Counted from the first letter of the stretch, positions 11,550 through 61,279 are shown. The stretch: DNA of 64,000 bases from Chlamydiales bacterium (GCA_029240075.1 JARBTQ010000002.1:75218-139217); one strand, 5' to 3'. Made by a program: numbers and translations. The notes: generated by a model not told the origin, from the letters alone.

Positions 11550-11610
11550 ACTAGTTATGTAGCTCAAGAGCCACTAAAACAAGAACTCTTAAATAAAAAA
11601 GCTCGAAGAA

Positions 11611-11730: not shown

Positions 11731-12031
11731 AAAGCTAGGCAATGAATAAAATCTAACAATAAGTTACGCAAATTCCTGATTTTTAATCAATAGATCTGTT
11801 GAAGAACCTAGTTGCAAGCATCTATTTGTCTATCCAATAAAGTGTTTATGCATAAAATTTTATCTACTCCTTCATAATAAGTTATAATGATGAAAAACTG
11901 TTTTAGCTTGTTTAGAACCAAATTTATTTAGAGTAGTAAGAGGTCTAGGTGTAACTATCAGAAACTTTAAAAGCTCTGGTAATTTAAGGTGGAAATAAGA
12001 AGTGTAAAAGGAAAATAGTGCGTTGTAGCAC

Positions 12032-12841
12032 CTATGACTCCTTATCCTTACCAAAATTATGGCGAGAATCAATCTGTTTTTTCAGTATATAGGCAATGAG
12101 TCGACGGGGTAAAAAATTGTTTGCTAATCGAATAGCCCAGCGAGTACGCCAATCGAAAATATAGAGAGGAATTTTTTCCTCAATCTGCTTCCAGATTTTA
12201 ACCGCAGCAAGTTGAGGAGACATTGTATAAAATTCCTCTTTTTGAGGAAAACCGCGAGAAGAACGCTCTCGAAATTTCGTAGCTACTTGCCCTGGACATG
12301 CTGTTAGTACACGAATGTTATATGGCTGTAGCTCCGTATCTATAGAAAGGGAAAATTGATTCAAAAAAGCTTTGCTAGCTGAGTAAGTTGCAAAGCTAGG
12401 AAATGGTAGAAATGCTGCTGCGGAAGAGACATTTAAAATAATTCCTGATAAGTGTTGTTTTTTTAGCGTTTCTGCAGCAACTAAAGTGAGTTCTAATACC
12501 GCTTTAACATTTACATCCAAAAGTTCAGAGTGAGTTTCTAGAGAGTGTAGGATAGCGTCTCCATATAGACCACATCCAGCGTTATTGATCACGAGGTTAG
12601 GGGACTGAGTTCTAATTAGTTGTTGTAATGCTATTCGATCCTCTCTTTTTCCTAAATCAAAGCTATAAATCTGAGAAGAGACCCCTAAAGGATTTAGTTC
12701 AGCCTGTAATTGGTCTAGTCTGTTGCGGTCACGACCTGTTAAAAGCAAATCAATTCCTTTAGAGGCTAATAGCTTAGCCAGTTCATAGCCAATACCTGAA
12801 GAGGCTCCTGTGATCAAAGCTTTTTTAAACTGTTTTGTCAT
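12032..12841 (-). CDS. Short-chain dehydrogenase/reductase (SDR) family oxidoreductase
   Basis: TGASSGIGYELA (TGxxxGxG) and YSASKAF (YxxxK) motifs. 269 aa. Confidence 0.85.
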   Translation of the reverse strand: MTKQFKKALITGASSGIGYELAKLLASKGIDLLLTGRDRNRLDQLQAELNPLGVSSQIYSFDLGKREDRIALQQLIRTQSPNLVINNAGCGLYGDAILHSLETHSELLDVNVKAVLELTLVAAETLKKQHLSGIILNVSSAAAFLPFPSFATYSASKAFLNQFSLSIDTELQPYNIRVLTACPGQVATKFRERSSRGFPQKEEFYTMSPQLAAVKIWKQIEEKIPLYIFDWRTRWAIRLANNFLPRRLIAYILKKQIDSRHNFGKDKES

Positions 12842-12842
12842 A

Positions 12843-13325
12843 TTAAACTTCAGCTAGTTCTACGTAAGAAGCGGTCCAATAGTTTTTTAGAATTTCAAGT
12901 TGTTCAATTGTCAAGGGGTAGCGATGAAGTTCTTGTTCTTTAATCCAATTAGCATCTCTGTAGTGCTGGGAATTAAGTTTTATGGAATCAGCTGCATCTA
13001 CTATTACAGGGATAACTACTAGCTGGGTTTGTGGACCCTTTGCAGATGTGTGAATGCTAGAATAGATGCAAGGATCTATTCGGGATACTTCTAAGCCAGT
13101 CATTGACTTGACAATATAAGGAAATAATTCTTCACAAGTATCGCGAGCTTCTAAATGAATGGAAAGAAGGTCGTAAGGGCAAGCTAAATTAGGAGTATAA
13201 GCTGGTTGCATGAGGAGGATTTGTTCTTGATAACAAATACAAAGCTTTGCTAAAAAGCGTGAGATCCCTTTTTCCCAACCATTCTTAAATAGCTTTTGTA
13301 TATTAAGTGTTGTGTGTTGTTCCAT
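12843..13325 (-). CDS. Hypothetical protein, 160 aa (weak Nudix-like resemblance only)
   Basis: ORF packed tightly between the MVD-like and SDR genes (1-nt and 22-nt gaps). The segment EARDTCEELFPYIVKSMTGLEV is only loosely Nudix-box-like. Confidence 0.55.
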   Translation of the reverse strand: MEQHTTLNIQKLFKNGWEKGISRFLAKLCICYQEQILLMQPAYTPNLACPYDLLSIHLEARDTCEELFPYIVKSMTGLEVSRIDPCIYSSIHTSAKGPQTQLVVIPVIVDAADSIKLNSQHYRDANWIKEQELHRYPLTIEQLEILKNYWTASYVELAEV

Positions 13326-13347
13326 CTGGTCCTCTCCTTTATCTAAG

Positions 13348-14385
13348 TTAATGGGAGTTAAAAGGTATGAAAATTTCTGCCTTTGGAAATGTTTTTTTGA
13401 CCTTTTCTAAATCTTTTTCTAAAAATAAAATTTTTAAATCGGCGCTCTGATCCATAGTGAAATAAAGAGGGATACCAGAATTTCGTATTCGCCATATTTC
13501 ATGGATGCATTCAATCGTCTGGGGTGAGCAGTACAAGAGAGTTGGGATTGATGATAGAGCGAGTGCTTGTAAAGTTAGACCATTATTCTCACTTACTTGT
13601 CCTACTCTCTCAAACTGTTTAAAATTGAGAGCTTCTTTAAACTCTATTACATCTCTTATAGCTGCGGCTTCCCACGCAGTGTACAGTGAGGAGGTTTCTT
13701 GTATTAGTTGCGCTTCTTTTATATATTGCTGTGAACGCTTTGCTTTTTCTGTGCTTAAGGGTAAATGCCCTACTAAAAGTTCATCCCACCAGATTGATAA
13801 GGGACTAGCGTAGCTATCCCAACCATTAGGGGAAACTCCTTTATCCCATTCTACAAATCCTGAGTAAAGAGAAATACAAGCCTCTCCTGCCAAAATTCGG
13901 GTTAAAATACAAAGTTGTGTTCTATCAAGCTTCCAGTCGAAAAAATCGCGCAAGGCCAATAAAAGCGCTGCAATTTTAGATCCTAGGGGATTAGAAGTTA
14001 GCCTTTCTAAATCTGAAATCGTATCGTTAATTATAATAGTAAAGTAAAAGTCGGGATAAGGACGTACCAGATCTAAAATCTGTTTGAAAAATTCAATTTC
14101 AGGAGCTGCTGAAATTCCTAACTTTTCGTTGAGTCTAATACTATCATGGTTATAGCCTAATTGGACGCAAACATTGGAGCCAAAAGGAAGAGATAAGCTG
14201 ATGCTAGGGGCTATTGGTAAATTAAGTTCTTTGTTTCTTAGCCCCCAAGCCTTACAAAGATGAAGATGTGCTGGTGCAAAAGCATGAGCTTCCTCTAGGC
14301 GAGGATGAAATCGCTGTGGAAGTAATTTTTGAATCATTTGCTGTTTGATCAATTTCATCCCATTTTTCATATCATTTATTACCAA
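13348..14385 (-). CDS. Diphosphomevalonate-decarboxylase-like GHMP-family protein with degenerate motifs
   Basis: APAHLHLCKAWGLRNKELNLPIAPSISLSL matches the MVD N-terminal pattern (NIA.IKYWGKRD..LNLP.NSS.S.TL). TRILAGEACISLYSGFVEW matches ARKGSGSACRSLFGGYVAW. YFTMDQSADLKILF matches AYTFDAGPNAV. The glycine/serine-rich ATP motif is poorly conserved. Confidence 0.6.
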   Translation of the reverse strand: MVINDMKNGMKLIKQQMIQKLLPQRFHPRLEEAHAFAPAHLHLCKAWGLRNKELNLPIAPSISLSLPFGSNVCVQLGYNHDSIRLNEKLGISAAPEIEFFKQILDLVRPYPDFYFTIIINDTISDLERLTSNPLGSKIAALLLALRDFFDWKLDRTQLCILTRILAGEACISLYSGFVEWDKGVSPNGWDSYASPLSIWWDELLVGHLPLSTEKAKRSQQYIKEAQLIQETSSLYTAWEAAAIRDVIEFKEALNFKQFERVGQVSENNGLTLQALALSSIPTLLYCSPQTIECIHEIWRIRNSGIPLYFTMDQSADLKILFLEKDLEKVKKTFPKAEIFIPFNSH

Positions 14386-19208: not shown

Positions 19209-22200
19209 TTGGCTAAGAATTTAAAGATTAATATTAAAAATACGCAAATTGCAGAAGCTATCAATCTTAAAGGGTTGAAGGCTAAGCTTAGCAAGCCAGG
19301 AGCAGAGCAAGAAGACTCGCAAGCTGTTGTTTCACAAGAGCCTGTTATAGCAAAAGAACTTGTAAAGCAAAAAGAAGACGCTTCTAAGAGTTCTACAGCT
19401 CATGCAGGGGATGAAAATTCACAAAGAAAAATTAAAGCTAAATCAAAATCCTCTTTTGCTACTCCTGTGGCTCCTGTGGAACAGCCTATAGAGATGCAGG
19501 CTGAACCAATCAAAGATTCACCAGCTTTACAATTAGTAAAAGGTCCGACTCTTATGCCTAGTATAGGAGAGTCTAAAGTACCAAAAATATCAAAAGAAAT
19601 AAAAGTACCTAAATTAGAAGAGGTTGTTAAAGAAACTACCCCTTCTGCTATAGAACAGAGTGCCGAAGTGGTCATGCCTCCTGTTGAGAAAGTTGTAGCA
19701 CAGGACTTTGTCCCCCCTACATCCGTGGTTCCTGAAAAATCACACGTCAGCAGTGAAAAGAGTAGTGTAAACGTGAAGCCCGAAGTAAAACAGGAGATCC
19801 CTGAAATTATTAAAGAAGATTTATCTGTAGCAAAAGTTACAGAGGAACGAATAGAGAAAGCGGTTGCTTCAGCAGCTCCCGCACCTGCAGCTCCAACTAT
19901 AAAATTGGGCCCAACAGGAAAGCATGTTAACGATCTACTAACAGCTCCTAAAAAAGTAACACCTCCTCCGATTGCTGCTAAAGAAAATACTGAAACTAGA
20001 AATAGTAATTTTCATAGGGATGATCAACGTACAGGAACAGCTCGAACAGAAAGACGATTTGAGCAGCGCTTTGAGAGACCTGAAAACCGAGAGCCTAGAG
20101 AAGAAAAAGGGGAGCGTTTTGAGCGATCGGAAAGGCCAGAAAGGTCTGAATTCCGTGATATGCAAAGCGATCGACCCAACAACTATCGTGATAGTCGAGG
20201 AGAAAGACCTGATTTTAGAGAACCTCGAGGCGAAAGAAATAGTGAGTTTAGACAGACTGTAGTTGATAGAGGACCAAGACCTGACAGAGGAGATAATAGG
20301 CCTGAACGCAGCTTTGCTCCTCGTGATGGACAGCAATTTCAAGGACCTCGGCCTCAAGGTCAATGGGAAGGATTCCGTGGACCTCGATCTGAAGGTCAGG
20401 GGGAAGGATTCCGTGGACCTAGGCCTCAAGGTCAAGGAGAGGGATACCGTGGGCCTCGGCCTCAGGGTCAAGGAGAGGGATACCGTGGACCTCGACCTGA
20501 AGGTCAGGGAGAAGGATTTCGAGGACCTCGACCTCAAGGAGAAGGGTTTCGTGGGCCTCGGCCTCAAGGAGAAGGGTTTCGTGGGCCTCGGCCTCAAGGT
20601 CAAGGAGAAGGGTTTCGTACTGGAGCTCCTAGACCGCCAGGTCCTGGAGGTGGATTTAACCGTAGACCCCCTGCTCCCGTTGCTCAGATCTATACTATAG
20701 AAGAGCTCGCTGAAATTGAGGAGAGAAAGAAAGCCGCCTTGCTTAAGAAAAAAGGTAAGGATGAGCAAGCTGAAGCTGAAGCAAATAGCAAAAAAGGGCT
20801 TAAGAGTAAAGACGGACGCGAAAATAAGTTTGGGGCAAAAGGTTTTGATGGACGTGATCGCCAAGGCTTACGTGGAGTTTCAAATGATGGAGACGAGTTT
20901 TCACATTGGCGTAAAAGGAAATCAAAGGATCGTAAAGCTCAAGAAGAGGAAGATACAACGATAAGACCCACTCAGCTTAAGATCCGCTTACCAATAAGTA
21001 TAAAAGATCTGGCAGCCGAGATGAAGTTAAAGGCTTCTCAGCTTTTATCTAAATTATTCCTGCAAGGGATGGTTATCACTCTTAACGACTTGCTTGATGA
21101 TGATACAGTAGTACAACTTCTAGGACAGGAATTTGGATGCGAGATTACAATTGATACCTCGGAAGAGGAGCGAATTCGTATAACCAACCAAACTATTAAG
21201 CAAGAAGTTGCTAGTTCAGCCCCAGAGCAATTAGTACCTCGGGCTCCTGTTGTAACATTTATGGGCCACGTAGACCACGGTAAGACAAGCTTGATAGATG
21301 CTATTCGCAAAAGTAATCGTGTTTCTACTGAAGCAGGGGCTATCACACAGCATATCGGAGCTTTCCGTTGTACTACCTCTGTAGGTGATATAGCTATTTT
21401 GGATACCCCCGGTCATGAAGCTTTCTCTGCTATGCGTGCTAGAGGTGCCAGTGTCACCGACATTGTAGTGCTTGTGATTTCTGGGGAAGAAGGAATGAAG
21501 CCTCAAACAATCGAAGCAATTCGGCAAGCTCGAGAAGCTCAAGCAACTATTGTTGTAGCTATTAATAAATGTGACAAACCTAATTTCAATGTAGAAACTG
21601 TATACCGTCAACTTGCTGAGCAGGAATTATTGCCTGAAGCTTGGGGAGGATCAACAATTACTGTAAATTGCTCTGCTGTTACAGGAGAAGGGATTCCTGA
21701 ATTATTAGAAATGGTTGCGCTACAGTCAGAAGTATTAGAGTTAAAAGCAAACTTGAATACTCGTGCGAGGGGAACTGTTATAGAATCAGAGATGCACAAA
21801 GGCTTAGGTGCTATTGCTAGGATCTTAGTCCAAAATGGAACACTACGCCATGGAGATGCTGTTGTTTTTGACTACCAATGGGGTAAAGTAAAAACAATGC
21901 ATGATGAATATAACAATTCGATTCAGGAAGCAGGTCCATCAACGCCTGTTGCTATTACTGGCTTGGCTGGTTTACCTAAAGCAGGTGATGAATTTGTTGT
22001 TGTTGCCAATGAAAGGGAAGCTCGTGAAATTGCGGAAGCTCGCCTTGAAGGAATGAAAGAAAAACTAGCACTACAAAAACAAGCCTTTTCTATGGAGCAT
22101 TTAATGCAACATGCATCCAATATAGAGAAGAAAGTATTCAACTTGATTTTACGTACAGACGTACAAGGCTCTTTAGATGCTCTTAAAACAGCTCTAAGCA

Positions 22201-22742
22201 AAATTAAGTCTGACAAGATTAAGTTAGAGATTATTTCTGCAGGAGTAGGGGAAGTATCTGAATCAGACGTAGAAATGGCAGCCACTTCTAAGTCTGTAAT
22301 TTTAGGTTTCCATACTCGTATAGAATCTCATGCAGAAGAGGTTATTAAAGAGCAGGGTATCCAAGTTAAGATGCACGATATCATCTATCATGCTGTAGAC
22401 GATATTATTACCTTGATGACAGATAAGCTTGATAAGATACCAGAAGAGCATGATCGTGGTTTAGTCGAAGTACGTGCAGTATTTAAATCCTCCCAAGTTG
22501 GTATTATTGCAGGTTGCTATGTAACAGAAGGATCTATTATTCGTAGCCACTCTGTAAGAGTAATACGTGATAAGGAAGTTGTCTGGAAAGGGTCGATCTC
22601 TTCACTTAAGAGAGTTAAGGAAGATGTAAGGGAAGTCCAAAAAGGATTTGAATGTGGTATAGTTCTTAATGGATTTAATGAGATTAAAGAAGGAGACCAA
22701 ATTCAATCTTATGAAGTGGTCTACCGTACGCAAACCCTCTAA
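19209..22742 (+). CDS. infB: Translation initiation factor IF-2 with an expanded repeat-containing N-terminal region (1177 aa)
   Basis: G-domain [25 protein letters not shown]-terminal IF-2 domains. TTG start 5 nt after the nusA stop. Confidence 0.95.
20343..20618 (+). repeat. In-frame tandem repeat inside infB: eight units of 36 or 30 nt encoding [12 protein letters not shown]-type peptides
   Basis: Units read directly: [36 protein letters not shown] (x2), [22 protein letters not shown] (x2), [12 protein letters not shown]. Preceded by an R/E/P-rich low-complexity tract. Confidence 0.9.
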
Positions 22743-39422: not shown

Positions 39423-40337
39423 ATGGCAAAGCGTATACAGAAAAAGCATTATCTTAAGCCAAAGTTAACATCGTTAAAATTATTTATTCTAGGAACTGTT
39501 ATCGGTTCTATTCTAACTTTTGTAGCGTTGAACATAGATGTTATAAAAGTGCAGCCAAATGCAATCAACGTCCCAACATACATTAAGCCTAAAGAAGCAA
39601 ACTCCTCTTTTCAAGCAGAGATAAAGCCTCTAGATCTTGAATTAGAACGATTTGGAGCTCCCATTGTTGCTATCCCCGTGCAAAGATCTAATTATAAGTT
39701 AGCTTATGATGGTCGCAATCATACCGCTTTTTGGGTTATGGAGCATTTAACAGCTGATAAGCTTAAGGGAAATACCAGTCGTTCTTCTAATTTTAAAGAG
39801 GATCCTAGCATCCCTATTGAGGTGCGTTCCACTTTAGATGATTACAAAGGATCAGGCTTTGATCGAGGTCACTTAGCTCCAGCTGCTAATCATAAGTCCT
39901 CAGCACAAGCAATGGATGATACTTTTTATCTATCAAACATGAGTGCACAAGTCCCTGAATTTAATCGAGGGTACTGGTCTAAATTAGAATCTTATGTAAG
40001 AGGTTTAGTTTCTAAGCACAAAAATTTGTATGTAGTAACTGGACCTCTTTACCTTCCAGAATTAGACAAGGATGGTAAAAAATATGTGAAGTACCAAGTT
40101 ATTGGACCTCACAACGTTGCAGTTCCTACTCATTTCTTCAAGGTTATCCTTGCTGAAAAACCTAGTGGACATCTTAAATTTGAAGCTTATGTCCTCCCTA
40201 ATAAAAAAATTGATGATTATATTCCTTTAGAAAAATTTTCAACTACAGTTCAGCAGGTAGAAAAATTAGCAGGTCTTATCTTTTTCAATAAAATTGATAA
40301 TGGGCTTAAAAAAATTGGGGGACAAGCTAAAATATAA
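39423..40337 (+). CDS. DNA/RNA non-specific endonuclease (NucA/EndoG family), membrane-anchored or secreted
   Basis: N-terminal TM (LKLFILGTVIGSILTFVAL). Catalytic DRGHLAPAANH motif and downstream SNMSAQVPEFNRGYW. Confidence 0.85.
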   Translation: MAKRIQKKHYLKPKLTSLKLFILGTVIGSILTFVALNIDVIKVQPNAINVPTYIKPKEANSSFQAEIKPLDLELERFGAPIVAIPVQRSNYKLAYDGRNHTAFWVMEHLTADKLKGNTSRSSNFKEDPSIPIEVRSTLDDYKGSGFDRGHLAPAANHKSSAQAMDDTFYLSNMSAQVPEFNRGYWSKLESYVRGLVSKHKNLYVVTGPLYLPELDKDGKKYVKYQVIGPHNVAVPTHFFKVILAEKPSGHLKFEAYVLPNKKIDDYIPLEKFSTTVQQVEKLAGLIFFNKIDNGLKKIGGQAKI

Positions 40338-42109: not shown

Positions 42110-42134
42110 CTTCAAGCTGTTAGATAGGATGGCT

Positions 42135-42175
42135 AAATAGATCTCTTGCGAAGTAATGTACGAAGAGATCTATTT
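42135..42175. terminator. 15-bp inverted repeat hairpin 25 nt after the glgC stop (no U-tract); carries the AGAGATCTAT repeat core
   Basis: aaatagatctcttgcg / cgaagagatctattt, one bulge, 10-nt loop. Confidence 0.45.
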
Positions 42176-42433
42176 AACAGTAAGATGCAAAAGGGGGCTA
42201 ATACAGCAGCACGCTTTACACGTTGTTTTGGAAGTCGCGATTTCAAGCTCGGAACGCCTGTTTTGCGAACTTCTGCATACTCCCTAAGATGTTGCTTAGC
42301 TACTCTTTCAAGACGTGTTTCCTCTAGTTTAGCCCCTTCAGTAAATGGCCTAGCTGCAAATTCCCCAGTATCCACGGTAAAGCTAGCGATTCCTTTAACT
42401 GTTTCGATAGGTTGCGTAACCAATAGGTCTCTC

Positions 42434-42497
42434 TCGAAACTTGTTTCGAAGAGATTTATCGAGCCACCGACAGTAAAGATTTGAAAGAGGCTCAATC
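42434..42497. repeat. 64-nt dispersed repeat copy inside the orphan module ORF
   Basis: tcgaaacttgtttcgaagagatttatcgagccaccgacagtaaagatttgaaagaggctcaatc. On the minus strand it encodes LSLFQIFTVGGSINLFETSFE. Confidence 0.75.
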
Positions 42498-42700
42498 TAG
42501 TCAGATTATTAGTCGCACCAACGATATTATCATTGTACTTAGCTTGTAGACGAGCAATCTCTCTATTATTTGATTGGACCACGGGATTGGCTTCACTTGG
42601 AACATAAACTTTAGCATTTTCTAACGTTCCGTGTACTTTATTATAAGCCCACTCCCTACCTTGATCAATGATATTTGTCTTTGGTTGTGTCTTGCTATCG

Positions 42701-42855
42701 GGAGCATGGACAAGACCGGGATTGCCCTTAGTCACAGCAATAGAATCTTGCTGATTAGCTACGCTTATAAATGCAGGACCACAATAGGCTTTGTTTTCAT
42801 CAATTACTGCTTGACCGTGTTCAAAATCCTCCTTAGAGACCACATCATCAGGATG
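42701..42855. repeat. 155-bp repeat copy 1 (partner 45370-45524, same orientation)
   Basis: Hand alignment gives 7 mismatches in 155 nt, with sharp loss of similarity on the low-coordinate side. Confidence 0.85.
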
Positions 42856-43093
42856 CAAGCCAACAGCTGTAGGCTTAGATTCTATAGGAGCAGGCTTTTC
42901 TGGGACTTATAAATCACGATGTGGAGGTTTTAGAGACTCCTCAGGCAGATTAGCTTTTTTAATAGGTTGAGGTTCTACAGAGCTAGGCTTGCCTGCAGGA
43001 GGTAGCTCTAGGGCAGCTTTATTCTGTCTTTATAGAGAGTTAAATGTTGCCACTAGAACTGAATTCCAGACTCGCCTTATGAAACTACGTTTA

Positions 43094-43669
43094 TTACTGA
43101 CTCGATGAAGGTGATGGGACGAGATGACGAGCTTCTTCATATGGTTCTTGCAGTATGACTTCTAAATTCCGTATTTCTTCGTTAAAACGTTCATAGGTAA
43201 TGATGCCATCACGTAATGTTGCCATAGCTACATAGTTCCCTCGAATGAATAGCTGATCATTATCTAGTTGGCGGAAGGTCCAGCGTAACTGTAGTCGTTC
43301 TAAACCAAAGGTAGGGGTTGTAATAAGTTCTTTAATTTCGTTAGAATCATTCAGAAGCTTGAGGTACCAGTCTGTACTCTCTACAATCATTTTTCGTGCT
43401 TGAGAAACATCATTAGCTTCTTGCCCTTCATAATACATGCGTAGCCAATAGATTTTGTCACCCCAATGCGCTGTTATCAAAAACGGGGTATAGTGATAAA
43501 CCTTCTCCATCTGCTCAACATGTTCAGCTTGGTATTTTCCAATATAATATTTTTGAGGCGGCCAATACCATTTCTTATGGGGCGGCGGCAAATCTGCATA
43601 GCATTGTAAACTGTTTATAAATAGTATCGCTATTAGTGATATAGAATAGATTTTTAGTTGATATATCAT
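43094..43669 (-). CDS. Small exported protein, paralogue B (candidate immunity/partner protein)
   Basis: 191 aa. Signal-like N-terminus MIYQLKIYSISLIAILFINSLQCYA-D. Shares ...AR..(I/Y)......(Y)L.LLN...EI/KI...L..(L/V)E/Q.R..F...EPYEEAR architecture with the preceding gene. Its ATG overlaps the upstream stop (ATGA). Confidence 0.7.
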   Translation of the reverse strand: MIYQLKIYSISLIAILFINSLQCYADLPPPHKKWYWPPQKYYIGKYQAEHVEQMEKVYHYTPFLITAHWGDKIYWLRMYYEGQEANDVSQARKMIVESTDWYLKLLNDSNEIKELITTPTFGLERLQLRWTFRQLDNDQLFIRGNYVAMATLRDGIITYERFNEEIRNLEVILQEPYEEARHLVPSPSSSQ

Positions 43670-44259
43670 GATTTATCCCCCAAAGCTAACTTCAAATGGT
43701 TAAATTCTTTAGTACGTGCCTCTTCATAGGTTTCTTTATGTATATTTTTTAGAGGGTTATGTATACCGTAGCCTTTCTTAGTATCGTAATAAATATATTT
43801 ATTGTTATTAAAGATACAACAGATATGCGTTCCATCACTAACTAGTCGTTGATTGGCATCATAAAACTCTAAACGTATTTCAACATTAGCCAGAGTAAGT
43901 GGGTAATTTGCTAGATAGGGCCTAATCTTTTCATTATTGTTAAATAGTTCTAAAAAGGTATTTAGATAGGTCAAATAGATGCCACGCGCAGTCTCCACAT
44001 CACACAATGAAGACATTAGCAATCTAAATTCCACTTCTTTTATATCATGCATCATAGATCCGCCGCCGCCGCCGTAGCTTACCGGAAAAAAATTGTTGAT
44101 TTTACTCACAAATTCCCGCTCTAATTGAGCGGAAAGGTTAATATACTTGTAAGCTTTTCTTTTTGGCAAAATATCTTCAGGAGTAATATATCTTTCGCGA
44201 TCCATACACGAAAAACAAAGCAAAGGGCAGATTAGGAACATTCTCAATATATTTCTCAC
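43666..44259 (-). CDS. Small exported protein, paralogue A (candidate immunity/partner protein, possible lipoprotein)
   Basis: 197 aa. MRNILRMFLICPLLCFSC signal with an atypical lipobox-like Cys. Internal GGGGGS. Ends ...KETYEEAR.... Its GTG start overlaps the stop of the 1277-aa gene (GTGA). Confidence 0.7.
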   Translation of the reverse strand: MRNILRMFLICPLLCFSCMDRERYITPEDILPKRKAYKYINLSAQLEREFVSKINNFFPVSYGGGGGSMMHDIKEVEFRLLMSSLCDVETARGIYLTYLNTFLELFNNNEKIRPYLANYPLTLANVEIRLEFYDANQRLVSDGTHICCIFNNNKYIYYDTKKGYGIHNPLKNIHKETYEEARTKEFNHLKLALGDKS

Positions 44260-47200
44260 GAATTATCCTCTCTTATAAATGCTTCACATTTAACCTGTAA
44301 AGGTTCGAAGTAAACCTTAGATAACATACTGTGAGCAAACCCTTCTTGTGAAATCGAACATTCCATGCCATCCTCAATGTTTTGAGCATGCATTTCCATT
44401 AATTCATCCGTTTTATTATCTATCCACTGTTTTTTGTGGTTATTGAACAAAGGAGTTGAGTAAATAATATCATCTTGATGCTCAAAATAGTATAAGTTTT
44501 CCGCATACTGTCTTAAAGTTTTTTGAACTTGCTCAGATGTTTTTAAACCATATGTTTTTTCTAAGATGTCAATTCGGTTATTATTTAATAGTTTTGGAAT
44601 AGGATCTAGATTACATATGATATTGGACACCTTTCCTAAATTCATTTTAGGAATAATGTCAGCGCCTCCCATACTAATTACAGAGATTCTATCTTGTTCT
44701 TTATCCGGCAGAGTTGCGACAGCATTTTTAAAAATTAGCGATCCAAGACTATGCGTTATAAAAATTGCCTTCTCGTTTTCGTTCAAAATGTCTTTCATCC
44801 ATGCTCTACAAAATTGAATGTGAGAGTTATTATTATCTTGCAACATTGTGAGAAGCTGAGGCACTTGCAAATTAAAATAACAACCTTGCACTTCATGTTT
44901 CCCACCAAAAAGAGAGTGAACAAATTGATGCTTTTGCTTTGCTTCGTCAGGACTATTAAACATTCCTGATATGACACAAATAGAGGTCGTTTCCTTATTT
45001 CTGATAAATTTTTCCCCTTCAATCTTATACAGGCCTTCATCTTTAAACTTATAGCCTAGTCTATTTTCAAAGTAAGCAGTAGTAGGAAATTTGGTATTCA
45101 TCTCTTTATTATCAATTTTTTCGATATCCTCAAAGCCATAGCCTGTAGTTATGTGGCTTTGTCTTTCTAAAGCTTCCAAGAAAGGTTTTACTAATTTTGA
45201 GGTATAGGAGTCTAGTTGAGTCATGTTTGTTAAGCCGATTATCTCAGCCTTACTGTTAGCATCTTGATCTGCTATCTCATGAACGTGTTTCTTCTCTCCC
45301 AATAACTCCTTTTTAGTTTCCAAAGGAGGATTTCCCTCTGCGTCATTTTGAGGTCTACTAACGGGGTCAGGAGCATGGACAAGACCTGGGTTGCCCTTAG
45401 TCACAGCAATAGAATCTTGCTGATTAGCTACGCTTTTAAATGCAGGACCACAGTAGGCTTTGTTTTCATCAATTACTGCTTGACCATGTTCAAAATCCTC
45501 CTTAGAGACCACATCATCGGGATGAGCTACAGCTTTGTTTGAACCGGCAAGACCGGAGAGCGTGCCTGAGTCATGCCCATAACTCGGATTTGCGCTTGAC
45601 CCTTGATGAGCTGCAGGATAAGGTAACCCAGCCTCCATTCTAGCGACATAGGCTGGATCATCCGTCTTGTTTTGGTACACTCGAGGTGTAGGTTTGGCTA
45701 CAGGCTGAGTTTCAGATACAACAGTAGGATCATAGCTTGTGGTTTTAGTCGTATTGCTCGTACTCGCTGGTTGTAGATTAATTGGTTCTAAATTATCAAG
45801 TGGAGGTATAGGATTACTTGAATATTTACCTGGACCAGAATTGCCTGTGGAATTTGTTTTTGCATTAGAATTAGTAGCTAGTTTTTGTAATGCCTTAATA
45901 TTTTCTATCTTTGCATCTATTCGAGCCATTGATTCTTCAAAAGAAATTTCATCAGGATCTACCAATAGCCCTGCAGAAGATTTGATTTTATATATGCTAG
46001 CATCGATCTCAGTCATCTTACTAGAAAAAGAATCTTTTTTTAGCAGCTGTTGTGCTTGTGCTTGTATTCTATCAGCTTGAAGGCACATATATTCAAATTC
46101 AAGCTTATTTGACTCAAAATCAGCTACATCAAAATCTGCTTTCATTCGTGCCATAGTCGCTTCTTGATTAAGCTCTTCCGCTAAATTTATAAGCCCTTGC
46201 TCATACTCTTGCTTTTTTAAATCCATATAGAATTCAAATTTTTCTCGATCATTATCTTCTAAATTTTGAATCCTATCATCTAAACGATTAAGTGCATGTT
46301 CCGCTTGATTTAATTCTTGTCTAGCATTGGATTCCAACTCTGTCAGTATAAGACCTGTGGTCGCAATTTTAAGCTCTGATAATTGTGTGTGAAGATGCTC
46401 TGTTTGCGCATCGCTGGCAATTTGATCTGCTTGCTTATCTAATCGCTCTAATTCTTCTGTTGTTTTTTGCGCATTTTCTTGTTGTTGCTGATTTTGGATC
46501 AACACTTCAGTATGCTGACTGTCTGCATAATCGACTGAGTTGATATGATTTAAAAGAGTGACTCTACGCTGCTCCCAACCCACTTTTAATGCTCTATCAA
46601 CTTCACTTAGAGTCTGAGTGGACTTATAGTATTGTCCTGTTACTTCAGCTATCTTTTTACTATTATTTTCGATCTGTTTAGCAAGTGTTTCCACTTTTTT
46701 TAGCTCACTTTCACTATGAGAGGACCGATACTTATCAGCAGAAGTGTTCAGCTCGTGTGCTAATTGTTGGGTTTCTGTGCGAAGCTTTTGCATTTCTGAT
46801 GATTGTGAAAGACCTTGGTTTGATAAAGCGTGATAGCGCGATAGATTTTGCTCATTTTGTTGGTGTTGCTGTCTCAATTCAGAACTAAGACTGGATTGCT
46901 GTCTTTGTAGTTCTTGATAGCTCTGCTGTATTTTTTCGGCAGTATGATTCAATTGGTGCTGGATCTTCTGAGCTTGCTCTGGAGCCTCTTTTGCCTCACA
47001 AACAACGCTTTGCATCTTATGCGTTAAGTCTTGAAATTTACGTTCATGCCCTGTGCGCTCTTGTTCGTTATTTTCTAATTTTTTGCACTGCTGTATTGAT
47101 TGTTCTTTGTTTTCCTGTATGCGTTTTTCAATATTTCCTATACGGTTCTTTTCATTATTTATTTGAGTTTGGTGTATGTTACGATCTTGTTGCGCACTAG

Positions 47201-48089
47201 CAGTATAGGCAGAATCCCATTGCTGCGGGTTAAAATTTTGAGTCTGTGTTATTTTTAGTTTAGCTAAATAACGTATCGCATCTAGTTTCAGATCCTGTTG
47301 AGCATTTTTTTTTGCACATTCTAGAATTTGTGAATGCATTTGCTGTATGTAAGCTGGTGAGCCAAATACTGGTTTTTGTCCAAATCCTCCTGCTGTCTGT
47401 GTAAAAAGAGGTTGAGGTTGTGCAAAGATTGGATTGCGAGGTGGCGGCGGGCTGAGCGAACGAGGATTCCGTGATTGGGCATTATGCAATGAGTTGGAAA
47501 CATGGCCTGCTTGAGTTTGAATGCTACTTGCTGTTCCTTTGCCATGTCGTACCCGTAGTTCTGTGCTTTCCTTAGTCGCTGCTTGATAAGTCTGTTTTTG
47601 ACTGATGCTATGATATTTTGCTTCCGATTGACTTTTTACATGATCAGCTTTTGTCTTAAGTTTTGCAGACACAGGATTAGCTGGACCGCTAGGACTATTA
47701 CCAGAAGGTCCTTTAGGGTCTGGTGAATTTGCAAAAAACTCTACTTTCCTTCTAGCAAAAGCGTTAGCTTGAGCATAGCCTTGGTTATGGGAAGAATTGG
47801 CAAAAGCTCCAGGAACACCTGTTAGATCTGAGGCAATAATTCCTATTTCTTGCAGCTTTTTAGTGGCAAAGTCTTGATAAGCTTTGATCTTTTCAAGATT
47901 TTCCTGCTGCTTAATCTCTTCTTGTGAAGGCCCACTGTAACTTCTTTGGGGGGCCTGATTACGACTGCGGCGAGCATAAGGCCAGGCAGGCCCGCCTCTA
48001 TTACCCGAAGATCCTCCATATAACCAAGCGTATCCGATTTCAAAACTATAACCTTTTCGACTATAACTTCCTTTACTTCGCCAACCCAT
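44256..48089 (-). CDS. Large multidomain protein: disordered N-terminus, Q-rich coiled coil, P/S/T linker, C-terminal lipase-like alpha/beta-hydrolase domain (putative secreted effector/toxin)
   Basis: 1277 aa with no signal peptide. Residues about 300-720 are heptad-rich (QQ.., LE..). The C-terminal roughly 280 aa carry a nucleophile elbow AIFITHSLGSL (GxSxG-like), an Asp motif ICNLDPIPKL (resembles the D.VP of class-3 lipases) and EGFAHSM (candidate His). Confidence 0.75.
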   Translation of the reverse strand: MGWRSKGSYSRKGYSFEIGYAWLYGGSSGNRGGPAWPYARRSRNQAPQRSYSGPSQEEIKQQENLEKIKAYQDFATKKLQEIGIIASDLTGVPGAFANSSHNQGYAQANAFARRKVEFFANSPDPKGPSGNSPSGPANPVSAKLKTKADHVKSQSEAKYHSISQKQTYQAATKESTELRVRHGKGTASSIQTQAGHVSNSLHNAQSRNPRSLSPPPPRNPIFAQPQPLFTQTAGGFGQKPVFGSPAYIQQMHSQILECAKKNAQQDLKLDAIRYLAKLKITQTQNFNPQQWDSAYTASAQQDRNIHQTQINNEKNRIGNIEKRIQENKEQSIQQCKKLENNEQERTGHERKFQDLTHKMQSVVCEAKEAPEQAQKIQHQLNHTAEKIQQSYQELQRQQSSLSSELRQQHQQNEQNLSRYHALSNQGLSQSSEMQKLRTETQQLAHELNTSADKYRSSHSESELKKVETLAKQIENNSKKIAEVTGQYYKSTQTLSEVDRALKVGWEQRRVTLLNHINSVDYADSQHTEVLIQNQQQQENAQKTTEELERLDKQADQIASDAQTEHLHTQLSELKIATTGLILTELESNARQELNQAEHALNRLDDRIQNLEDNDREKFEFYMDLKKQEYEQGLINLAEELNQEATMARMKADFDVADFESNKLEFEYMCLQADRIQAQAQQLLKKDSFSSKMTEIDASIYKIKSSAGLLVDPDEISFEESMARIDAKIENIKALQKLATNSNAKTNSTGNSGPGKYSSNPIPPLDNLEPINLQPASTSNTTKTTSYDPTVVSETQPVAKPTPRVYQNKTDDPAYVARMEAGLPYPAAHQGSSANPSYGHDSGTLSGLAGSNKAVAHPDDVVSKEDFEHGQAVIDENKAYCGPAFKSVANQQDSIAVTKGNPGLVHAPDPVSRPQNDAEGNPPLETKKELLGEKKHVHEIADQDANSKAEIIGLTNMTQLDSYTSKLVKPFLEALERQSHITTGYGFEDIEKIDNKEMNTKFPTTAYFENRLGYKFKDEGLYKIEGEKFIRNKETTSICVISGMFNSPDEAKQKHQFVHSLFGGKHEVQGCYFNLQVPQLLTMLQDNNNSHIQFCRAWMKDILNENEKAIFITHSLGSLIFKNAVATLPDKEQDRISVISMGGADIIPKMNLGKVSNIICNLDPIPKLLNNNRIDILEKTYGLKTSEQVQKTLRQYAENLYYFEHQDDIIYSTPLFNNHKKQWIDNKTDELMEMHAQNIEDGMECSISQEGFAHSMLSKVYFEPLQVKCEAFIREDNS
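45370..45524. repeat. 155-bp repeat copy 2, inside the 1277-aa gene (partner 42701-42855)
   Basis: Same alignment as copy 1. Encodes HPDDVV...GLVHAPD just upstream of the lipase-like C-terminal region. Confidence 0.85.
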
Positions 48090-48312: not shown

Positions 48313-49302
48313 TTAGCGCTCATCTAAGCGAGGAATAATATTGAAATTAGGGATCATCTTTGTTCCCAAGCGTGGTTGCGAAGGTATAGCAGGTTCTATG
48401 GTTTGAGTTGTTCGAGCTCCTCTCATATAGCTTGCTTGTAATTCTAAAAACTTTTGCGTTAATAATTGTCTCTCTGCACGTTCAGCAATGAGCTCATTTT
48501 TTAGCAACTCTAATATTTCTGAAGTCTGATTTGATCCTGAAGGTTGCCATTGAGTTACAGTATTTGTAGAAGATCTTTGCAAAGCTTCTTTATCTTTTTC
48601 TAACTCGCTAATCTTATTTAAAGCTGTATCTAATCGGGATGATAAATTTGTTTTATCTGTATAGAAGTCTCCCCTTTGCCTTTCTACGTCACGCAAAGTT
48701 TCCGTTAAAGCTGAGACTTTTTGTTTACTTTCATTTAGTAAAGATTCATTTTCTTGGAACTTTTTTTCAAGTTTTGAAACAATTTCTTTTTGTTCTTTAA
48801 GAGCTTCTTCTAGAGACTTTAGATCCAGGTCCTTTTTAATGTTTTGCTCATCTAAAGATTTCTTAAGAGCTGACCACTCCTCTTTATCCCTATGATGACT
48901 TTCCCTCTCAGTATTGAGCTGTGCTTGAAGCCTGCTATTGTCTTCTGCCCGATAGTACCGTTCGTCATTTAAAGAGCGTTCTAATCGTTCCTCAGCAATC
49001 TTAGAATGGCGTAAAGATTCGACAGATTCATCCAAATAATAAAGATGTGTGGCTAGATGTTTACAATCTTCTCCATCTAAGACATAGTCAAGTTGTGCCC
49101 ATATAGTATTTTTGCTTGCTCGCGATTCGATAGCTGCCTTTAGCTTTATGCTTGCATTTTCTCCTCTACTTTTATGGAGATCATATTCAGGAAAAGGGAT
49201 TGGTTGATGACAAACAGGGTTTGGCTCTGGTTCTTTTTCCTCATTAGGGGGGGTAATCATTTCCTCATATAATTCTCTACGTTTTGATCTAGATGTAAAC
49301 AT
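48313..49302 (-). CDS. Coiled-coil protein (329 aa), hypothetical
   Basis: Central roughly 180 aa of charged heptad repeats (SLDEQNIKKDLDLKSLEEALKEQKEIVSKLEKKFQENESLL...). No signal peptide. Confidence 0.65.
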   Translation of the reverse strand: MFTSRSKRRELYEEMITPPNEEKEPEPNPVCHQPIPFPEYDLHKSRGENASIKLKAAIESRASKNTIWAQLDYVLDGEDCKHLATHLYYLDESVESLRHSKIAEERLERSLNDERYYRAEDNSRLQAQLNTERESHHRDKEEWSALKKSLDEQNIKKDLDLKSLEEALKEQKEIVSKLEKKFQENESLLNESKQKVSALTETLRDVERQRGDFYTDKTNLSSRLDTALNKISELEKDKEALQRSSTNTVTQWQPSGSNQTSEILELLKNELIAERAERQLLTQKFLELQASYMRGARTTQTIEPAIPSQPRLGTKMIPNFNIIPRLDER

Positions 49303-49367: not shown

Positions 49368-50615
49368 TTAGGTTATTAAAAAATCATCAGAAAGAGCTGC
49401 TAATGCAGATAGCTGTTCAATGATTAGCGATAAGGGATCTATAAGATCTAGCTCAATTTTTTGAATTAATTCATTCGAATTCAACGAATCTACTTTCTCA
49501 GTCAAAATTCCTAGATGCTGTAATAAGGCTTTTACCTGAGAAATGAGCTCATCAAAACTTGCATATCGTTTTTGTGTTATTGTAACGCAATGCTCTATCT
49601 CTTTTTGATAATCGGAAATTTTTTTATTCAATGCATCCTTAGCTTGGAGTTGCTGTTGTACATTTTGCTGAAAAAAGTGCAGTTTATTTTGTTGCTGCTT
49701 AGCTAAGATTTGCTGATGTTGCCTTGTTAAGGCTTGTTCCTGCATCAAGCTTTCTAGATTTTCAATAGTTTGCAAAGTCGTAAGATATAGATTCCTAAAA
49801 ACTTCTATTGCTTGTTTTATTGCATGTAATCGCATTTCAGCAGTATCAAAACAGTTTAGAACCTCCGGATTAAACAAAGAACGAGTAGAATCGTACCTTG
49901 CGCTCATATTTGTCACTTTGATTTGGATGTCGGATAATAGTGGTACGAGGGCACCATCTATTGTTTCAGATGAGCGATAATTTCTTGTATGCACCGTATT
50001 CCCTGTTTGTAGCGATTGTGGCAAAGATTCAGATAGCTTAATAAGAGCATCCTTCAATTGGCCACCATGCTCACTCAACAGTAGAGGTAAGGAGGTCATT
50101 TTTTCTGTAATTGTTTTAAAAGACTCATGACTATTATTCAAACGCTCCCGTAACTCATTACAAGATTGTAAATGATGGAGACTACTGAGTTCCTGTTTTA
50201 TGTCTTTAAAGAGATTTAAAGTTGTCTTGAGATTATTCAAGATAAAAAGAGAATAAGAGCGTAGAGAAGGAAGGGTTTCATTCGACTCTTTCAGCACAAA
50301 AGTAAGTTGTTCCGTGTTGGCTGTTAAATTATGAAATTCCATTTTAAAACTTTGCATCTTTTGCTCTTGTGCACTCCATAGACGAGCCTCAAAATTAAAC
50401 CTTGTATCTTGCTCCTGATAAAGACGCAGTTGATCTTGTAAATGTTGTAAAGCTTGTTTTACTGCTAAGCCAATCTGGTATGCTTTACAATAAGTACGTT
50501 GTTCTAATACCAAATCTTCTTTTGAACTAGCATGATCTACTATAGCTGCTTCTAAAGTTAATTGTGGACTACTTAAAGGCTTATTTTGGAAAATAGTTTG
50601 TATAGAAGGGTTCAT
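49368..50615 (-). CDS. All-helical hypothetical protein (415 aa)
   Basis: Long ORF with Q/L-rich helical sequence. Same strand as, and 65 nt upstream of, the 329-aa coiled-coil gene. Confidence 0.65.
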   Translation of the reverse strand: MNPSIQTIFQNKPLSSPQLTLEAAIVDHASSKEDLVLEQRTYCKAYQIGLAVKQALQHLQDQLRLYQEQDTRFNFEARLWSAQEQKMQSFKMEFHNLTANTEQLTFVLKESNETLPSLRSYSLFILNNLKTTLNLFKDIKQELSSLHHLQSCNELRERLNNSHESFKTITEKMTSLPLLLSEHGGQLKDALIKLSESLPQSLQTGNTVHTRNYRSSETIDGALVPLLSDIQIKVTNMSARYDSTRSLFNPEVLNCFDTAEMRLHAIKQAIEVFRNLYLTTLQTIENLESLMQEQALTRQHQQILAKQQQNKLHFFQQNVQQQLQAKDALNKKISDYQKEIEHCVTITQKRYASFDELISQVKALLQHLGILTEKVDSLNSNELIQKIELDLIDPLSLIIEQLSALAALSDDFLIT

Positions 50616-55379: not shown

Positions 55380-57206
55380 TTAAGTGCCTTTAGAATCACT
55401 CAAAGTATTTAAAACACCTTGGAAATAATTTTTGATTTTGCCTTGTTCTAACGGTTCGACTTCATACAAGTTTAGAGCTTCTAATTGCTCAGAAAATGCC
55501 TTTAAACATTGAAAATCATCCGGTAGAAGTAACGTTTGGCGTGCAAGTTTCATAAACGCCTGCGTTGTATCAAACTTATAAAATTCGAATAGCATCTGAT
55601 TTTTTATGTAGTCAATTGGTCGTTTAGATTGAAAGAAATCTAAAGCTATCTTTTCCAAACGTTTAATTTGTACTTCAATGAATTTCAAGTCGATAAATTG
55701 TTTATCAAAGTCAACCAAACTTGGGTTTAGTTTAATGTACTTTAAAGGACTAGAACGAGATCGATTTATAGGATTTCCATAGGTATACAATTTAAAATGG
55801 CTCAAACTTAAACCTTGAGACAGAGTTTCAATTTGGTTGGTGTGGATATCAAGAAATTCAAGACATAACGGAAAAGAGCTTGGTCGTCTATTTAATTTAC
55901 GCAGCAGGTTGTGACTTAAATCAACGGCTTTTAATGTCTCAATTTTCCAGAATTTTGAAGGAACAGAGTCTATTTTGTTATGGTTTAGTACCAAATACTC
56001 TAAATTTCTAAGTTTGACTAATGCTCTAGGAAAGGCTTCAAATCTATTATAGTCTAAATGCAAAAATTTTATTTGCTTAAGATGGTGAAAATGACGGGGT
56101 AACTTTTTCAAATGATTATGATCTAATCTAAGGCTCGATAGAGTCTGTAATTTAGTAAATGTCTGAGGGAAGTGGGTAATTTGATTATGGCTTAGTTCGA
56201 GGGTACTCAATGATGTCAACTGTTCTATGTTTGATAGAAGCCCTGACATTTGATTGTAGTTAATCTTCAAGATTTGTAGACTGGTAAGTTGCCCCATTTC
56301 TTGTGGTAATTCAGTCAGTTGATTGAATGATAAGTCTAATGCTTTGAGTTTTGATAATCTTCCTATATTAGGAGATAAGGTCTTTAATTGATTGTGTCTT
56401 AAAGAAAGAGTTTCCAAACGATCAAACTGTCCAATTGCAGCAGGTATTGTTTGCAGCTTGTTATATGCCAGATCTATTCTCAGTAGATGCCTTAAAAGGC
56501 AGCTTTCTTCTGGAAAAAATGTAATTTCTTTATTGGATAACTCTAAAGACTTTTTGAGAAAGGAATAACTACTTTTATTGCTATTTTCAGAGAAATTCTT
56601 TTTAATGTTTAAAATTTGCAATCCTTTTTGATACAAGGAAAGATTAGGATAGCTAGCATAGTTAGAATGAAACGAAGAGTAAATTGTAAACAAGTTTTTC
56701 AACTTTTCTGTTACACGCCAGGTTTGTAGTTCCATGTAAATTTGAGAAAGGTCTAGTCTATCCTTGTTAGCATTGGCTGCTAATTTCCGTATAAAGGAAT
56801 CTCCCCCAGCTATAGCCAGAATCTCTCCAATAACCTTTGTAAAGATAGCCTTCACCCTAATGCATTCTTTTGAAAATGACATTTTGAGAATTTTATCTTC
56901 TGGTAGTAAAGGGGATAAATAGAGATCGATAATGTATTTAACTTGATCATATTGTTCACTATGATACTTAAAATTGTAACCCGTTGATTCATTGCGTAAG
57001 CTTGATATAGGATCGAGGACTTGTCTATATAAAACTCTCTCTATTTTTTCACGGATTTTTATAAAACGGTAATCTTCAGTATCCTTGATAGTACGTAATC
57101 TCTTAGAACAGCTCCCTACTGCTATGGGATTAACGTCTTCATAGCTACAAATTATATCTAAGATTTCGTCAGGCAACTGTTCTAAAAGACTTAGTGGAAA
57201 ATTCAT
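55380..57206 (-). CDS. F-box plus leucine-rich-repeat (eukaryote-like) protein, putative host-targeting effector
   Basis: N-terminal F-box LSLLEQLPDEILDIICSY. About ten 23-aa LRRs of the L..L.L..N.L..LP..IG.L..L type. ATG at 57206 with a gaagga SD is preferred. The ORF track's TTG at 57299 directly abuts the asd stop. Confidence 0.8.
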   Translation of the reverse strand: MNFPLSLLEQLPDEILDIICSYEDVNPIAVGSCSKRLRTIKDTEDYRFIKIREKIERVLYRQVLDPISSLRNESTGYNFKYHSEQYDQVKYIIDLYLSPLLPEDKILKMSFSKECIRVKAIFTKVIGEILAIAGGDSFIRKLAANANKDRLDLSQIYMELQTWRVTEKLKNLFTIYSSFHSNYASYPNLSLYQKGLQILNIKKNFSENSNKSSYSFLKKSLELSNKEITFFPEESCLLRHLLRIDLAYNKLQTIPAAIGQFDRLETLSLRHNQLKTLSPNIGRLSKLKALDLSFNQLTELPQEMGQLTSLQILKINYNQMSGLLSNIEQLTSLSTLELSHNQITHFPQTFTKLQTLSSLRLDHNHLKKLPRHFHHLKQIKFLHLDYNRFEAFPRALVKLRNLEYLVLNHNKIDSVPSKFWKIETLKAVDLSHNLLRKLNRRPSSFPLCLEFLDIHTNQIETLSQGLSLSHFKLYTYGNPINRSRSSPLKYIKLNPSLVDFDKQFIDLKFIEVQIKRLEKIALDFFQSKRPIDYIKNQMLFEFYKFDTTQAFMKLARQTLLLPDDFQCLKAFSEQLEALNLYEVEPLEQGKIKNYFQGVLNTLSDSKGT

Positions 57207-57299
57207 TTTAATGAATCCTTCTTTGTGAATGAATGATTTTAATGGATTTAAATATACATTAATAGGTTGGGAAATAAAAAATTTACTAGCAATAGACAA

Positions 57300-61113: not shown

Positions 61114-61215
61114 AATCTTTCTTATTTAAATCAAAAATTCCAAAGTTTTTTTAGATGCGATTATGCTAAAAGATTCTTTTAGTGTTTCTCATTTACAAGT
61201 TCATAATAATCTTTT

Positions 61216-61279
61216 TCGAAACTCGTTTCGCAGAGATCTATCGAGTCACCAAACGTAAAGATTCGAAAGAGACTCAATC
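61216..61279. repeat. 64-nt dispersed repeat copy downstream of tRNA-Ala (partners 42434-42497 and partial 22768-22795)
   Basis: tcgaaactcgtttcgcagagatctatcgagtcaccaaacgtaaagattcgaaagagactcaatc aligns with 42434-42497 at 55/64 identical positions by hand. Confidence 0.75.

Follow-up and report, generated by a model that had tools for sequence, protein, structure and literature searches.

Polymorphic toxins and Rhs proteins are on record in environmental members of the Chlamydiae (PMC3482391, PMC2811131, PMC7143554, PMC6520448). Zhang et al. (2012, PMC3482391) list polymorphic toxin domains for the phylum, Protochlamydia and Waddlia have annotated Rhs proteins, and classical polymorphic toxin domains have been described in P. 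amoebophila (König et al., 2019). In amoeba symbionts, toxin-like domains that include Tox-ABhydrolase-2 are used against the hosts, and such host-directed toxins of endosymbionts typically come without adjacent immunity genes (Zhang et al., PMC3482391). A further family of interest is DUF687, which is confined to Chlamydia and is found in the putative inclusion membrane (Inc) proteins CT326 and CPn0066/0069/0381/0882 (PMC3048545). It has recently been assigned to the alpha/beta hydrolases as a catalytically dead family whose C-terminus forms a membrane bundle of six helices (PMC11878206). Here, a locus with links to several of these systems is described from a 64-kb stretch of DNA (hereafter the window) of a 'Chlamydiales bacterium' metagenome-assembled genome (MAG; JARBTQ010000002.1:75218-139217). 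It occupies the minus strand from 48089 to 42133, and four open reading frames (ORFs) were read in it: a large gene for a 1277-aa carrier protein with a hydrolase end, two small genes for exported proteins of 197 and 191 aa (A and B), and an orphan ORF that repeats part of the large gene. We consider it likely, with a probability of roughly 0.65, that the locus encodes a polymorphic-toxin-type effector and its immunity proteins, that C-terminal ends have been exchanged by way of a short module, and that the orphan is the remnant of a cassette. A preceding sequence-only reading had suggested that such loci might be new to the phylum; that novelty falls because polymorphic toxins and Rhs proteins were already recorded in environmental Chlamydiae.

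The alpha/beta-hydrolase signature that had been noticed in the last 280 or so residues of the carrier is indeed present. The motifs ITHSLGS, NLDPIP and GFAHS supply Ser1114, Asp1162 and His1253, and in an alignment of 41 domains four columns only are invariant, namely a glycine of the oxyanion region and the equivalents of these three residues. Hydrolase relatives, nine in all, came to light only when 1.84 billion representatives were searched exhaustively with phmmer; a word-indexed search with residues 856-1277 had picked up nothing but the module described below, in P0001 and P0002. One of the nine is P0004, a paralogue of the carrier. Another is P0008, a protein of 1778 aa with Rhs repeats (RHS_repeat, 5e-66) that carries the hydrolase at its extreme C-terminus. 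The carriers of the family include Rhs proteins, coiled-coil proteins (in the window and in the contig L002), transmembrane and Pro-rich proteins (L083/L084) and also stand-alone proteins. An AlphaFold2 model made on the family alignment (pLDDT 83, pTM 0.83; the single-sequence model, at pLDDT 42.7, was unusable) gave 99 Foldseek matches in the PDB at E<=1e-3, the best with an E of 1.2e-5 and a TM-score of about 0.4, and the best 50 of the 99 are nearly all enzymes of the alpha/beta-hydrolase fold (esterases, lipases and haloperoxidases, for example), with esterases and lipases other than class 3 at the top. At the level of sequence, phmmer with the hydrolase region found only chance-level matches in the PDB, and the family profile placed lipases at the top of the PDB sequences, weakly (E 0.02, with a larger profile no better). 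The class-3 diacylglycerol lipase 5xk2 was aligned by family profiles over HSLG and NxDPxPKL, again weakly (E 0.024 and 0.89), and the window domain has no Pfam match to Lipase_3. Model and motifs support an alpha/beta-hydrolase fold with a Ser-Asp-His triad, and the domain may reasonably be taken for a lipase. Of the class-3-lipase-like fold with triad that had been predicted, the fold and the triad are supported; the assignment to class 3 is only weakly suggested, given the missing Lipase_3 match and profile E values of 0.02-0.9.

The same alignment leads to DUF687 (PF05095), which is matched by nine of the 41 domain relatives with a best E of 3.7e-14 (alignment A6, loci L007-L087); the window's own domain gives no match to it at E<=1. 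Both families share a distant sequence relationship, the alpha/beta-hydrolase fold and a chlamydial distribution. Unlike what is reported for the DUF687 proteins, the window family has an invariant triad and no transmembrane bundle. The pattern of matches suggests that it is a related but distinct branch in which catalysis would be intact.

The role proposed for the hydrolase comes from the genes with which it is paired elsewhere. In L007, a Rhs-hydrolase gene is followed by the gene of a 190-aa lipoprotein from the same family as the small proteins of the window. L008 comes from the MAG of an uncultured member of the Chlamydiae; in it, a signal-peptide-bearing Rhs protein of 1737 aa has its hydrolase end just after a DPYGL motif, and its gene overlaps by 4 nt that of a 173-aa family lipoprotein. 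The same pairing is found in L003, L004 and L005, and the stop of P0004, a paralogue of the carrier, is overlapped by 4 nt by a 194-aa lipoprotein gene. A scan of metagenome contigs, scored with hidden Markov models (HMMs) of both families on six-frame ORFs, contributed 80 further loci. The ORF that ends in the hydrolase stops at the first small gene in 43 of the 47 loci that are informative (those with at least 600 nt upstream), two to five small genes stand in tandem in 33 of the 80, and most of the long carriers have 9-18 YD repeats. A scan of genome contigs with a three-sequence alignment of the small proteins, whose patterns were narrow, found one locus only. Since a C-terminal domain of Rhs proteins with arrays of small exported proteins downstream is a signature of toxin and immunity, the hydrolase and the two lipoproteins of the window are read as toxin and immunity. 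The effector/immunity interpretation first drawn from the sequence has gained support in this way, the same pair being found at the ends of Rhs toxins in L007, L008 and many metagenome loci. The immunity family also includes fused double-domain genes of 325-377 aa (L003 609-2822, L015 5259-6356 and L049 174-1304), five tandem copies in L020, and copies in L004 that lack an intact toxin and adjoin an integrase.

Rhs toxins with alpha/beta-hydrolase ends (the Tox-ABhydrolase classes) are among the nearest counterparts: those in L007, L008 and many metagenome loci share the hydrolase family and its lipoprotein partner, and common features are an immunity gene placed directly 3' of the toxin, and immunity arrays. 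The window carrier is unlike them in having neither YD repeats nor a DPxGL core end. The hydrolase and immunity proteins of the window are unmatched in Pfam and NCBIfam, and the Tox-ABhydrolase-1/2/3 profiles lie outside those libraries.

In the window itself, the coupling of the three genes is close. Direct reading of the sequence verified the GTGA and ATGA overlaps: at the junction '...aattcGTGAgaaat' the GTG start of A at 44259 lies over the TGA stop of the toxin gene at 44258-44256, and at '...aaatcATGAtat' the ATG start of B at 43669 lies over the TGA stop of A at 43668-43666. Shine-Dalgarno-like purine-rich stretches (GAGAGGA and GGGGGA) stand directly 5' of both small-gene starts. The small proteins appear at NCBI, in the 'Chlamydiales bacterium' MAG, as K0S74_213 and K0S74_212, and the orphan as K0S74_211 (P0002); scans of the four window proteins with Pfam, NCBIfam and PADLOC returned zero matches. 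Both small proteins start with a hydrophobic signal-like segment, and their paralogy, also proposed from the sequence, is well founded: they are 27% identical over 97 aa in a pairwise comparison (E 2e-5), and the family HMM matches both (2e-48 for the 197-aa and 3e-44 for the 191-aa protein). A profile search collected 52 members of this family, of about 165-205 aa, and the few members with names all come from Chlamydiae/Chlamydiota MAGs. In a 46-member alignment, the motifs GxGGxM, EAR, NxNEKIRPYLANYPF and ETYEEAL are present, and a lipobox cysteine occupies the aligned position in most members. The signal sequence of A, MRNILRMFLICPLLCFSC, aligns with the lipobox of the homologues, and because of this N-terminal homology (signal and lipobox) the GTG start at 44259 is favoured over NCBI's shorter 179-aa call. 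The 194-aa protein encoded after P0004 shares 36% identity with the 197-aa protein and begins with a lipoprotein signal of textbook form. These features support the prediction that the small proteins are exported and of lipoprotein type, B being by its sequence a divergent paralogue of A. They have no Pfam or NCBIfam match, the lipase chaperone (Lif) families included, and the family profile finds no relative in the PDB. A further member of the family, P0016 (K0S74_1334), is encoded elsewhere on L002.

This arrangement is reminiscent of the Tle/Tli pairs of type VI secretion systems (T6SS), in which a Ser-Asp-His lipase-type toxin is likewise accompanied by exported, often duplicated immunity proteins of the lipoprotein type predicted here; the site of action in both cases would be the periplasmic face of the membrane. 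The differences are nevertheless clear. The window holds no T6SS genes, VgrG, PAAR or Hcp, and the neighbours of the locus are housekeeping and glycogen genes; the hydrolase does not match any Tle-associated Pfam family; and its nucleophile elbow reads T-H-S-L-G, not G-x-S-x-G.

The architecture of the carrier is as follows. Residues 1-250 are rich in Gly, Pro and Ser, residues 251-745 have nearly no Pro or Gly and are rich in Gln, Glu and Lys, so composed that they presumably form a long helical or coiled-coil stalk, and residues 746-855 make up a linker rich in Pro, Ser and Thr; the module (856-908) and the hydrolase (about 1034-1277) follow. It has 0 YD motifs, where Rhs proteins that carry the same toxin have 9-18, no DPxGL, and no Pfam match to RHS_repeat or Fil_haemagg, nor does it have repeats of the filamentous haemagglutinin (FHA) type. 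Its paralogue P0004 (1116 aa, 29% identity over 410 aa, a degenerate module included) has the same overall layout and is equally devoid of YD and FHA repeats, signal peptide and transmembrane segment. The P0004 locus, in which one coupled 194-aa lipoprotein gene follows, lies at 10001-13932 of the 48-kb contig L002, which belongs to the same MAG as the window because K0S74_1334 (P0016) is on that contig.

The 53-aa module (HPDDVV...GLVHAPD) that precedes the hydrolase connects the carrier to the orphan and to a different class of toxin. The repeat of the big gene, put at 155 bp and about 95% identity in the sequence-only reading, extends over 158 nt at 96% (42698-42855 versus 45367-45524, blastn E 6e-69), and 53 of 61 aa are identical at the protein level (E 9e-35); the two copies diverge abruptly after '...GLVHAPD', and in the orphan an unrelated C-terminus follows. 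Taken together, the four sequence observations (hydrolase domain, gene overlaps, paralogy and repeat) are incompatible with chance. The motifs NKxxCGPAF and (A/V)(V/L)TKG are conserved in the module and are common to P0004 and to P0001, the module of which is 81% identical. A profile search with a four-sequence alignment of the module gave no matches. P0001 is encoded on L001, a 15.9-kb contig (1-15882; JGI 3300042923 Ga0456365_0005539) from the same JGI sample as the window's MAG, and its C-terminus has a weak Ntox28-like region (E 0.054). The main protein of L001 exceeds 2138 aa and combines haemagglutinin repeats (Fil_haemagg_2, 9e-26) with an OTU protease domain in its interior. Downstream come a DUF2247 immunity gene and three orphan toxin/immunity cassettes, which have 300-nt repeats of 96-100% identity in common with the main gene. 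Between L001 and L002, 1.3 kb are 93% identical and a further 372 nt are 95-96% identical, and therefore the same or a very close genome holds such toxin arrays.

The DNA of L001 matches the window at 42701-42908 (88%) and at 45357-45524 (86%), and a three-way alignment of orphan, L001 and big gene places the boundaries of the module precisely. The big gene joins the other two exactly at CAT CCx GAT, all three part abruptly after CAT GCT CCx GA ('...GLVHAPD'), and within the module the orphan sides with the big gene at the positions where L001 differs. Behind these sharp breakpoints stand three different C-termini: the window hydrolase, that of the orphan and that of P0001. The suggestion that the module acts as a recombination junction is supported by the mosaic boundaries and by this diversity of ends.

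The orphan comprises 241 aa from a TTG or 236 aa from the GTG in NCBI's call. The TTG at 42858 is 235 nt from the stop of the 191-aa gene (43094), and the spacer between them encodes a Pro-rich in-frame stretch that is broken by a TAA at 42907-42909. The 5' flank of the orphan at 42856-42908 (about 50 nt, across the TAA) matches the P0001 cassette of L001 and not the big gene. The idea that the orphan was displaced from the big gene is not supported on this account, the flank pointing instead to a cassette of an FHA-type array. In the three-way alignment, the orphan is a mosaic of an FHA-type cassette 5' flank, a module homogenised with the big gene and a C-terminus unrelated to either. The locus therefore also invites comparison with the arrays of contact-dependent inhibition (CDI) systems and FHA (TpsA) proteins: the orphan keeps a short conserved pre-toxin segment as their orphan cassettes do, and its 5' flank and module match the cassette of L001. 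Unlike such arrays, the big gene lacks FHA repeats and a VENN motif, no TpsB partner is found in the window, and the orphan of the window has no immunity gene. The coordinates of the features are collected in Table 1.

Table 1. Features of the locus in the 64-kb window (positions counted from the first nucleotide of the window; functional names are predictions).
Feature	Position	Strand	Remarks
Carrier-toxin gene, 1277 aa	44256..48089	(-)	ORF 48089..44256
Module copy 1 (HPDDVV...GLVHAPD), 53 aa	45366..45524	(-)	in carrier gene
C-terminal hydrolase toxin domain	44259..44990	(-)	Ser/Asp/His triad
Catalytic codons	Ser1114 44748-44750; Asp1162 44604-44606; His1253 44331-44333	(-)	
Immunity-type lipoprotein A, 197 aa	43666..44259	(-)	GTG start overlapping toxin stop (GTGA)
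Immunity-type protein B, 191 aa	43094..43669	(-)	ATG overlapping preceding stop (ATGA)
Spacer, 235 nt	42859..43093	(-)	with 5' remnant of orphan cassette
Orphan cassette ORF, 241 aa from TTG	42133..42858	(-)	
Module copy 2	42697-42855	(-)	in orphan ORF
Dispersed repeat copy, about 70 nt	42428..42497		inside orphan ORF; encodes SINLFETSFERD; hairpin-forming core
Strong hairpin	42134..42176		near-perfect 18-bp stem, -21 kcal/mol, z = -6.6; between convergent orphan ORF and glgC

The hairpin at the end of the locus is probably a bidirectional terminator; pattern scans for promoters and terminators did no better than on shuffled sequences. A palindrome related to it is found at 42422-42459. The dispersed repeat has two further copies, one intergenic at 61210-61279 of the window, 95 nt after a tRNA-Ala gene and 84% identical, and one at 8478-8525 of L002, also intergenic, 1.5 kb 5' of the paralogous toxin gene and 81% identical. 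It may be a small element, mobile or regulatory, or what is left of decayed cassettes. Over 28 aa the orphan also matches the window at 61.2 kb; a reading of this match as a second decayed toxin fragment was considered and rejected, as the match reflects this repeat, which occurs in intergenic DNA of L002 as well.

The setting is ordinary chromosome, with infB, yidC, glgC, glycogen phosphorylase, asd and a starch-synthase-type glgA among the genes of the window. Immediately 5' of the toxin gene, and like it on the minus strand, come two ORFs of 329 and 415 aa (48313-49302 and 49368-50615). Their matches, of SMC-like or coiled-coil type, are all weak, and the paralogue on L002 has no such ORFs in front of it. 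Candidate secreted factors are a 639-aa leucine-rich-repeat protein (LRR_8, 4.6e-38; 55380-57299, minus strand) and a 304-aa DNA/RNA non-specific endonuclease with a hydrophobic N-terminus (Endonuclease_NS, 2.7e-63; 39423-40337, plus strand). The GC content peaks at 45.6% (about 36% elsewhere) at 20001-22000, within infB (IF-2, 19209-22742), and a 308-aa antisense ORF in that gene (19938-20864) is probably spurious.

In the explanation that we favour, the effector would consist of a disordered N-terminus, a helical stalk of about 500 aa, a Pro-rich linker and a Ser-Asp-His hydrolase predicted to be catalytically intact, which would attack lipids of the envelope by lipase, phospholipase or esterase activity. 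The two coupled paralogous lipoproteins would bind and neutralise it at the periplasmic face of the producing cell and of its kin. The module would be a conserved junction for past exchange of C-terminal ends, and the orphan a 5'-truncated, immunity-less cassette remnant that gene conversion later brought into line with the big gene. Export might be by type III secretion or by colicin-like release, and the target would be a competing bacterium rather than the host. Of the features by which polymorphic toxins are recognised (Zhang/Aravind 2012), the locus has a toxin domain that is found on other carriers, a downstream immunity-type gene and an orphan that shares a segment with the main gene (158 nt, 96%), and it lacks a recognised N-terminal trafficking or secretion domain or signal peptide. 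Nor does it belong by its own features to the Rhs (YD/DPxGL), CDI (FHA/VENN/TpsB), Tle (Tle1-5 families and linkage) or Lif groups. Several observations weigh against this explanation, those on the orphan being taken up in the next paragraph. The carrier has no signal peptide or transmembrane segment, Pfam, NCBIfam and PADLOC gave no recognised trafficking domain for it, and no secretion machinery was found in the 64-kb window, in agreement with the initial remark that neither T6SS nor CDI machinery is visible there. The only full-length relative of the carrier, P0004 from the same MAG, has the same module and hydrolase, so that polymorphism of this carrier is no more than a possibility; of the C-terminal swapping that had been envisaged, the junction role of the module is supported, whereas exchange on this carrier would be conjecture. 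The organism is presumably an obligate intracellular chlamydia, and the target could therefore be the host. Furthermore, DUF687, which some hydrolase relatives match, is itself a putative inclusion-membrane family. A host-directed effector delivered by type III secretion, a lipase acting on host or inclusion membranes with the small proteins as self-protection, foldases or activators, would fit these last points. Chlamydial effectors commonly look like the carrier, which has no signal peptide and in which a long helical region comes after a disordered N-terminus. The DUF687 matches among the domain relatives, the leucine-rich-repeat protein nearby in the window and the anti-host use of toxin-like domains, Tox-ABhydrolase-2 included, by amoeba symbionts (Zhang et al.) point in the same direction. 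Such an effector is nonetheless quite unlikely. One to five genes for exported lipoproteins follow the hydrolase in nearly every locus, whereas host-directed toxins of endosymbionts typically lack immunity genes; the same pair ends Rhs proteins that bear signal peptides; tandem arrays of paralogues suit immunity better than a foldase, and no Pfam match to lipase chaperone families was found; and DUF687 proteins are reported to be without catalytic residues, in contrast to the invariant triad seen here. A colicin-like bacteriocin, released by lysis and entering through a receptor and translocation steps, would agree with the three-part layout of disordered N-terminus, helical stalk and C-terminal toxin, with the missing signal peptide and with an immunity gene that overlaps the toxin stop. 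Immunity to colicins that act in the periplasm, colicin M for example, comes from proteins anchored to the membrane in that same compartment, and the lipoproteins would correspond to these. The likeness is confined to layout, however, as there is no sequence relationship and no Pfam similarity to colicin domains, no lysis gene was seen, and the locus is chromosomal, among glycogen genes of an intracellular bacterium, so that we regard this origin as improbable.

The orphan raises a different issue, in that the effector/immunity pair could be real and the orphan still an inert, decaying fragment of a past insertion or duplication, its 158 nt kept alike by recent gene conversion and without any role in swapping. 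The in-frame TAA stands 16 codons 5' of the module, and the ORF has no ATG and no clear start. It is without a downstream immunity gene because glgC converges 23 nt away, it reads into the probable terminator hairpin and ends inside it, and it contains the dispersed 70-nt repeat known from intergenic DNA. Its last 186 aa have no relatives in the metagenome-contig scan, protein databases not having been searched. With no start, no immunity gene and no relatives of its C-terminus, the orphan may well be inert, and the paralogue keeps module and hydrolase together. Against a mere fragment, the 186 codons past the module are open in a genome of 37% GC, for which the chance is estimated at about 1e-6; the module, to which three unrelated C-termini are joined, is sharply bounded at either end; and the source array L001 contains textbook orphan cassettes with repeats of 96-100% identity. 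A fragment with no part in any exchange is therefore possible, though on balance rather unlikely. Under the effector/immunity reading with past exchange at the module, the orphan is most plausibly a truncated and perhaps inert cassette, a record of recombination at the module and not proof of ongoing swapping.

Four points are new at this locus. The toxin family of hydrolases and the immunity family of lipoproteins are both absent from the curated libraries (Pfam and NCBIfam); this toxin/immunity pair is used on a helical carrier that is not of the Rhs type and has no signal; different carrier types have a junction module of 53 aa in common; and the hydrolase family is linked to DUF687. This last link suggests, from sequence relationships, that the DUF687 proteins derive from an active toxin hydrolase lineage. 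A broader picture can be drawn, in which environmental Chlamydiota would possess an undescribed delivery class of signal-less helical-stalk carriers, released by type III secretion or in a colicin-like manner and exchanging their ends through the 53-aa module shared with FHA toxin arrays of the same genome, and in which the catalytically dead, inclusion-membrane-type DUF687 proteins of pathogenic Chlamydia would descend from antibacterial lipase toxins; as a whole, we hold this to be unlikely. Obligate intracellular chlamydiae share their host cells with other symbionts and pathogens, and their means of bacterial competition are almost unstudied. The locus defines a testable toxin/immunity pair that occurs widely on Rhs proteins of Chlamydiota-like sequences from metagenomes, and it indicates a type of carrier without a known export signal. 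It may also explain where the enigmatic DUF687 proteins of pathogenic Chlamydia come from. Should the hydrolase prove to be a phospholipase active on the envelope, chlamydiae would have in this pair a counterpart of Tle and Tli that works without a T6SS.

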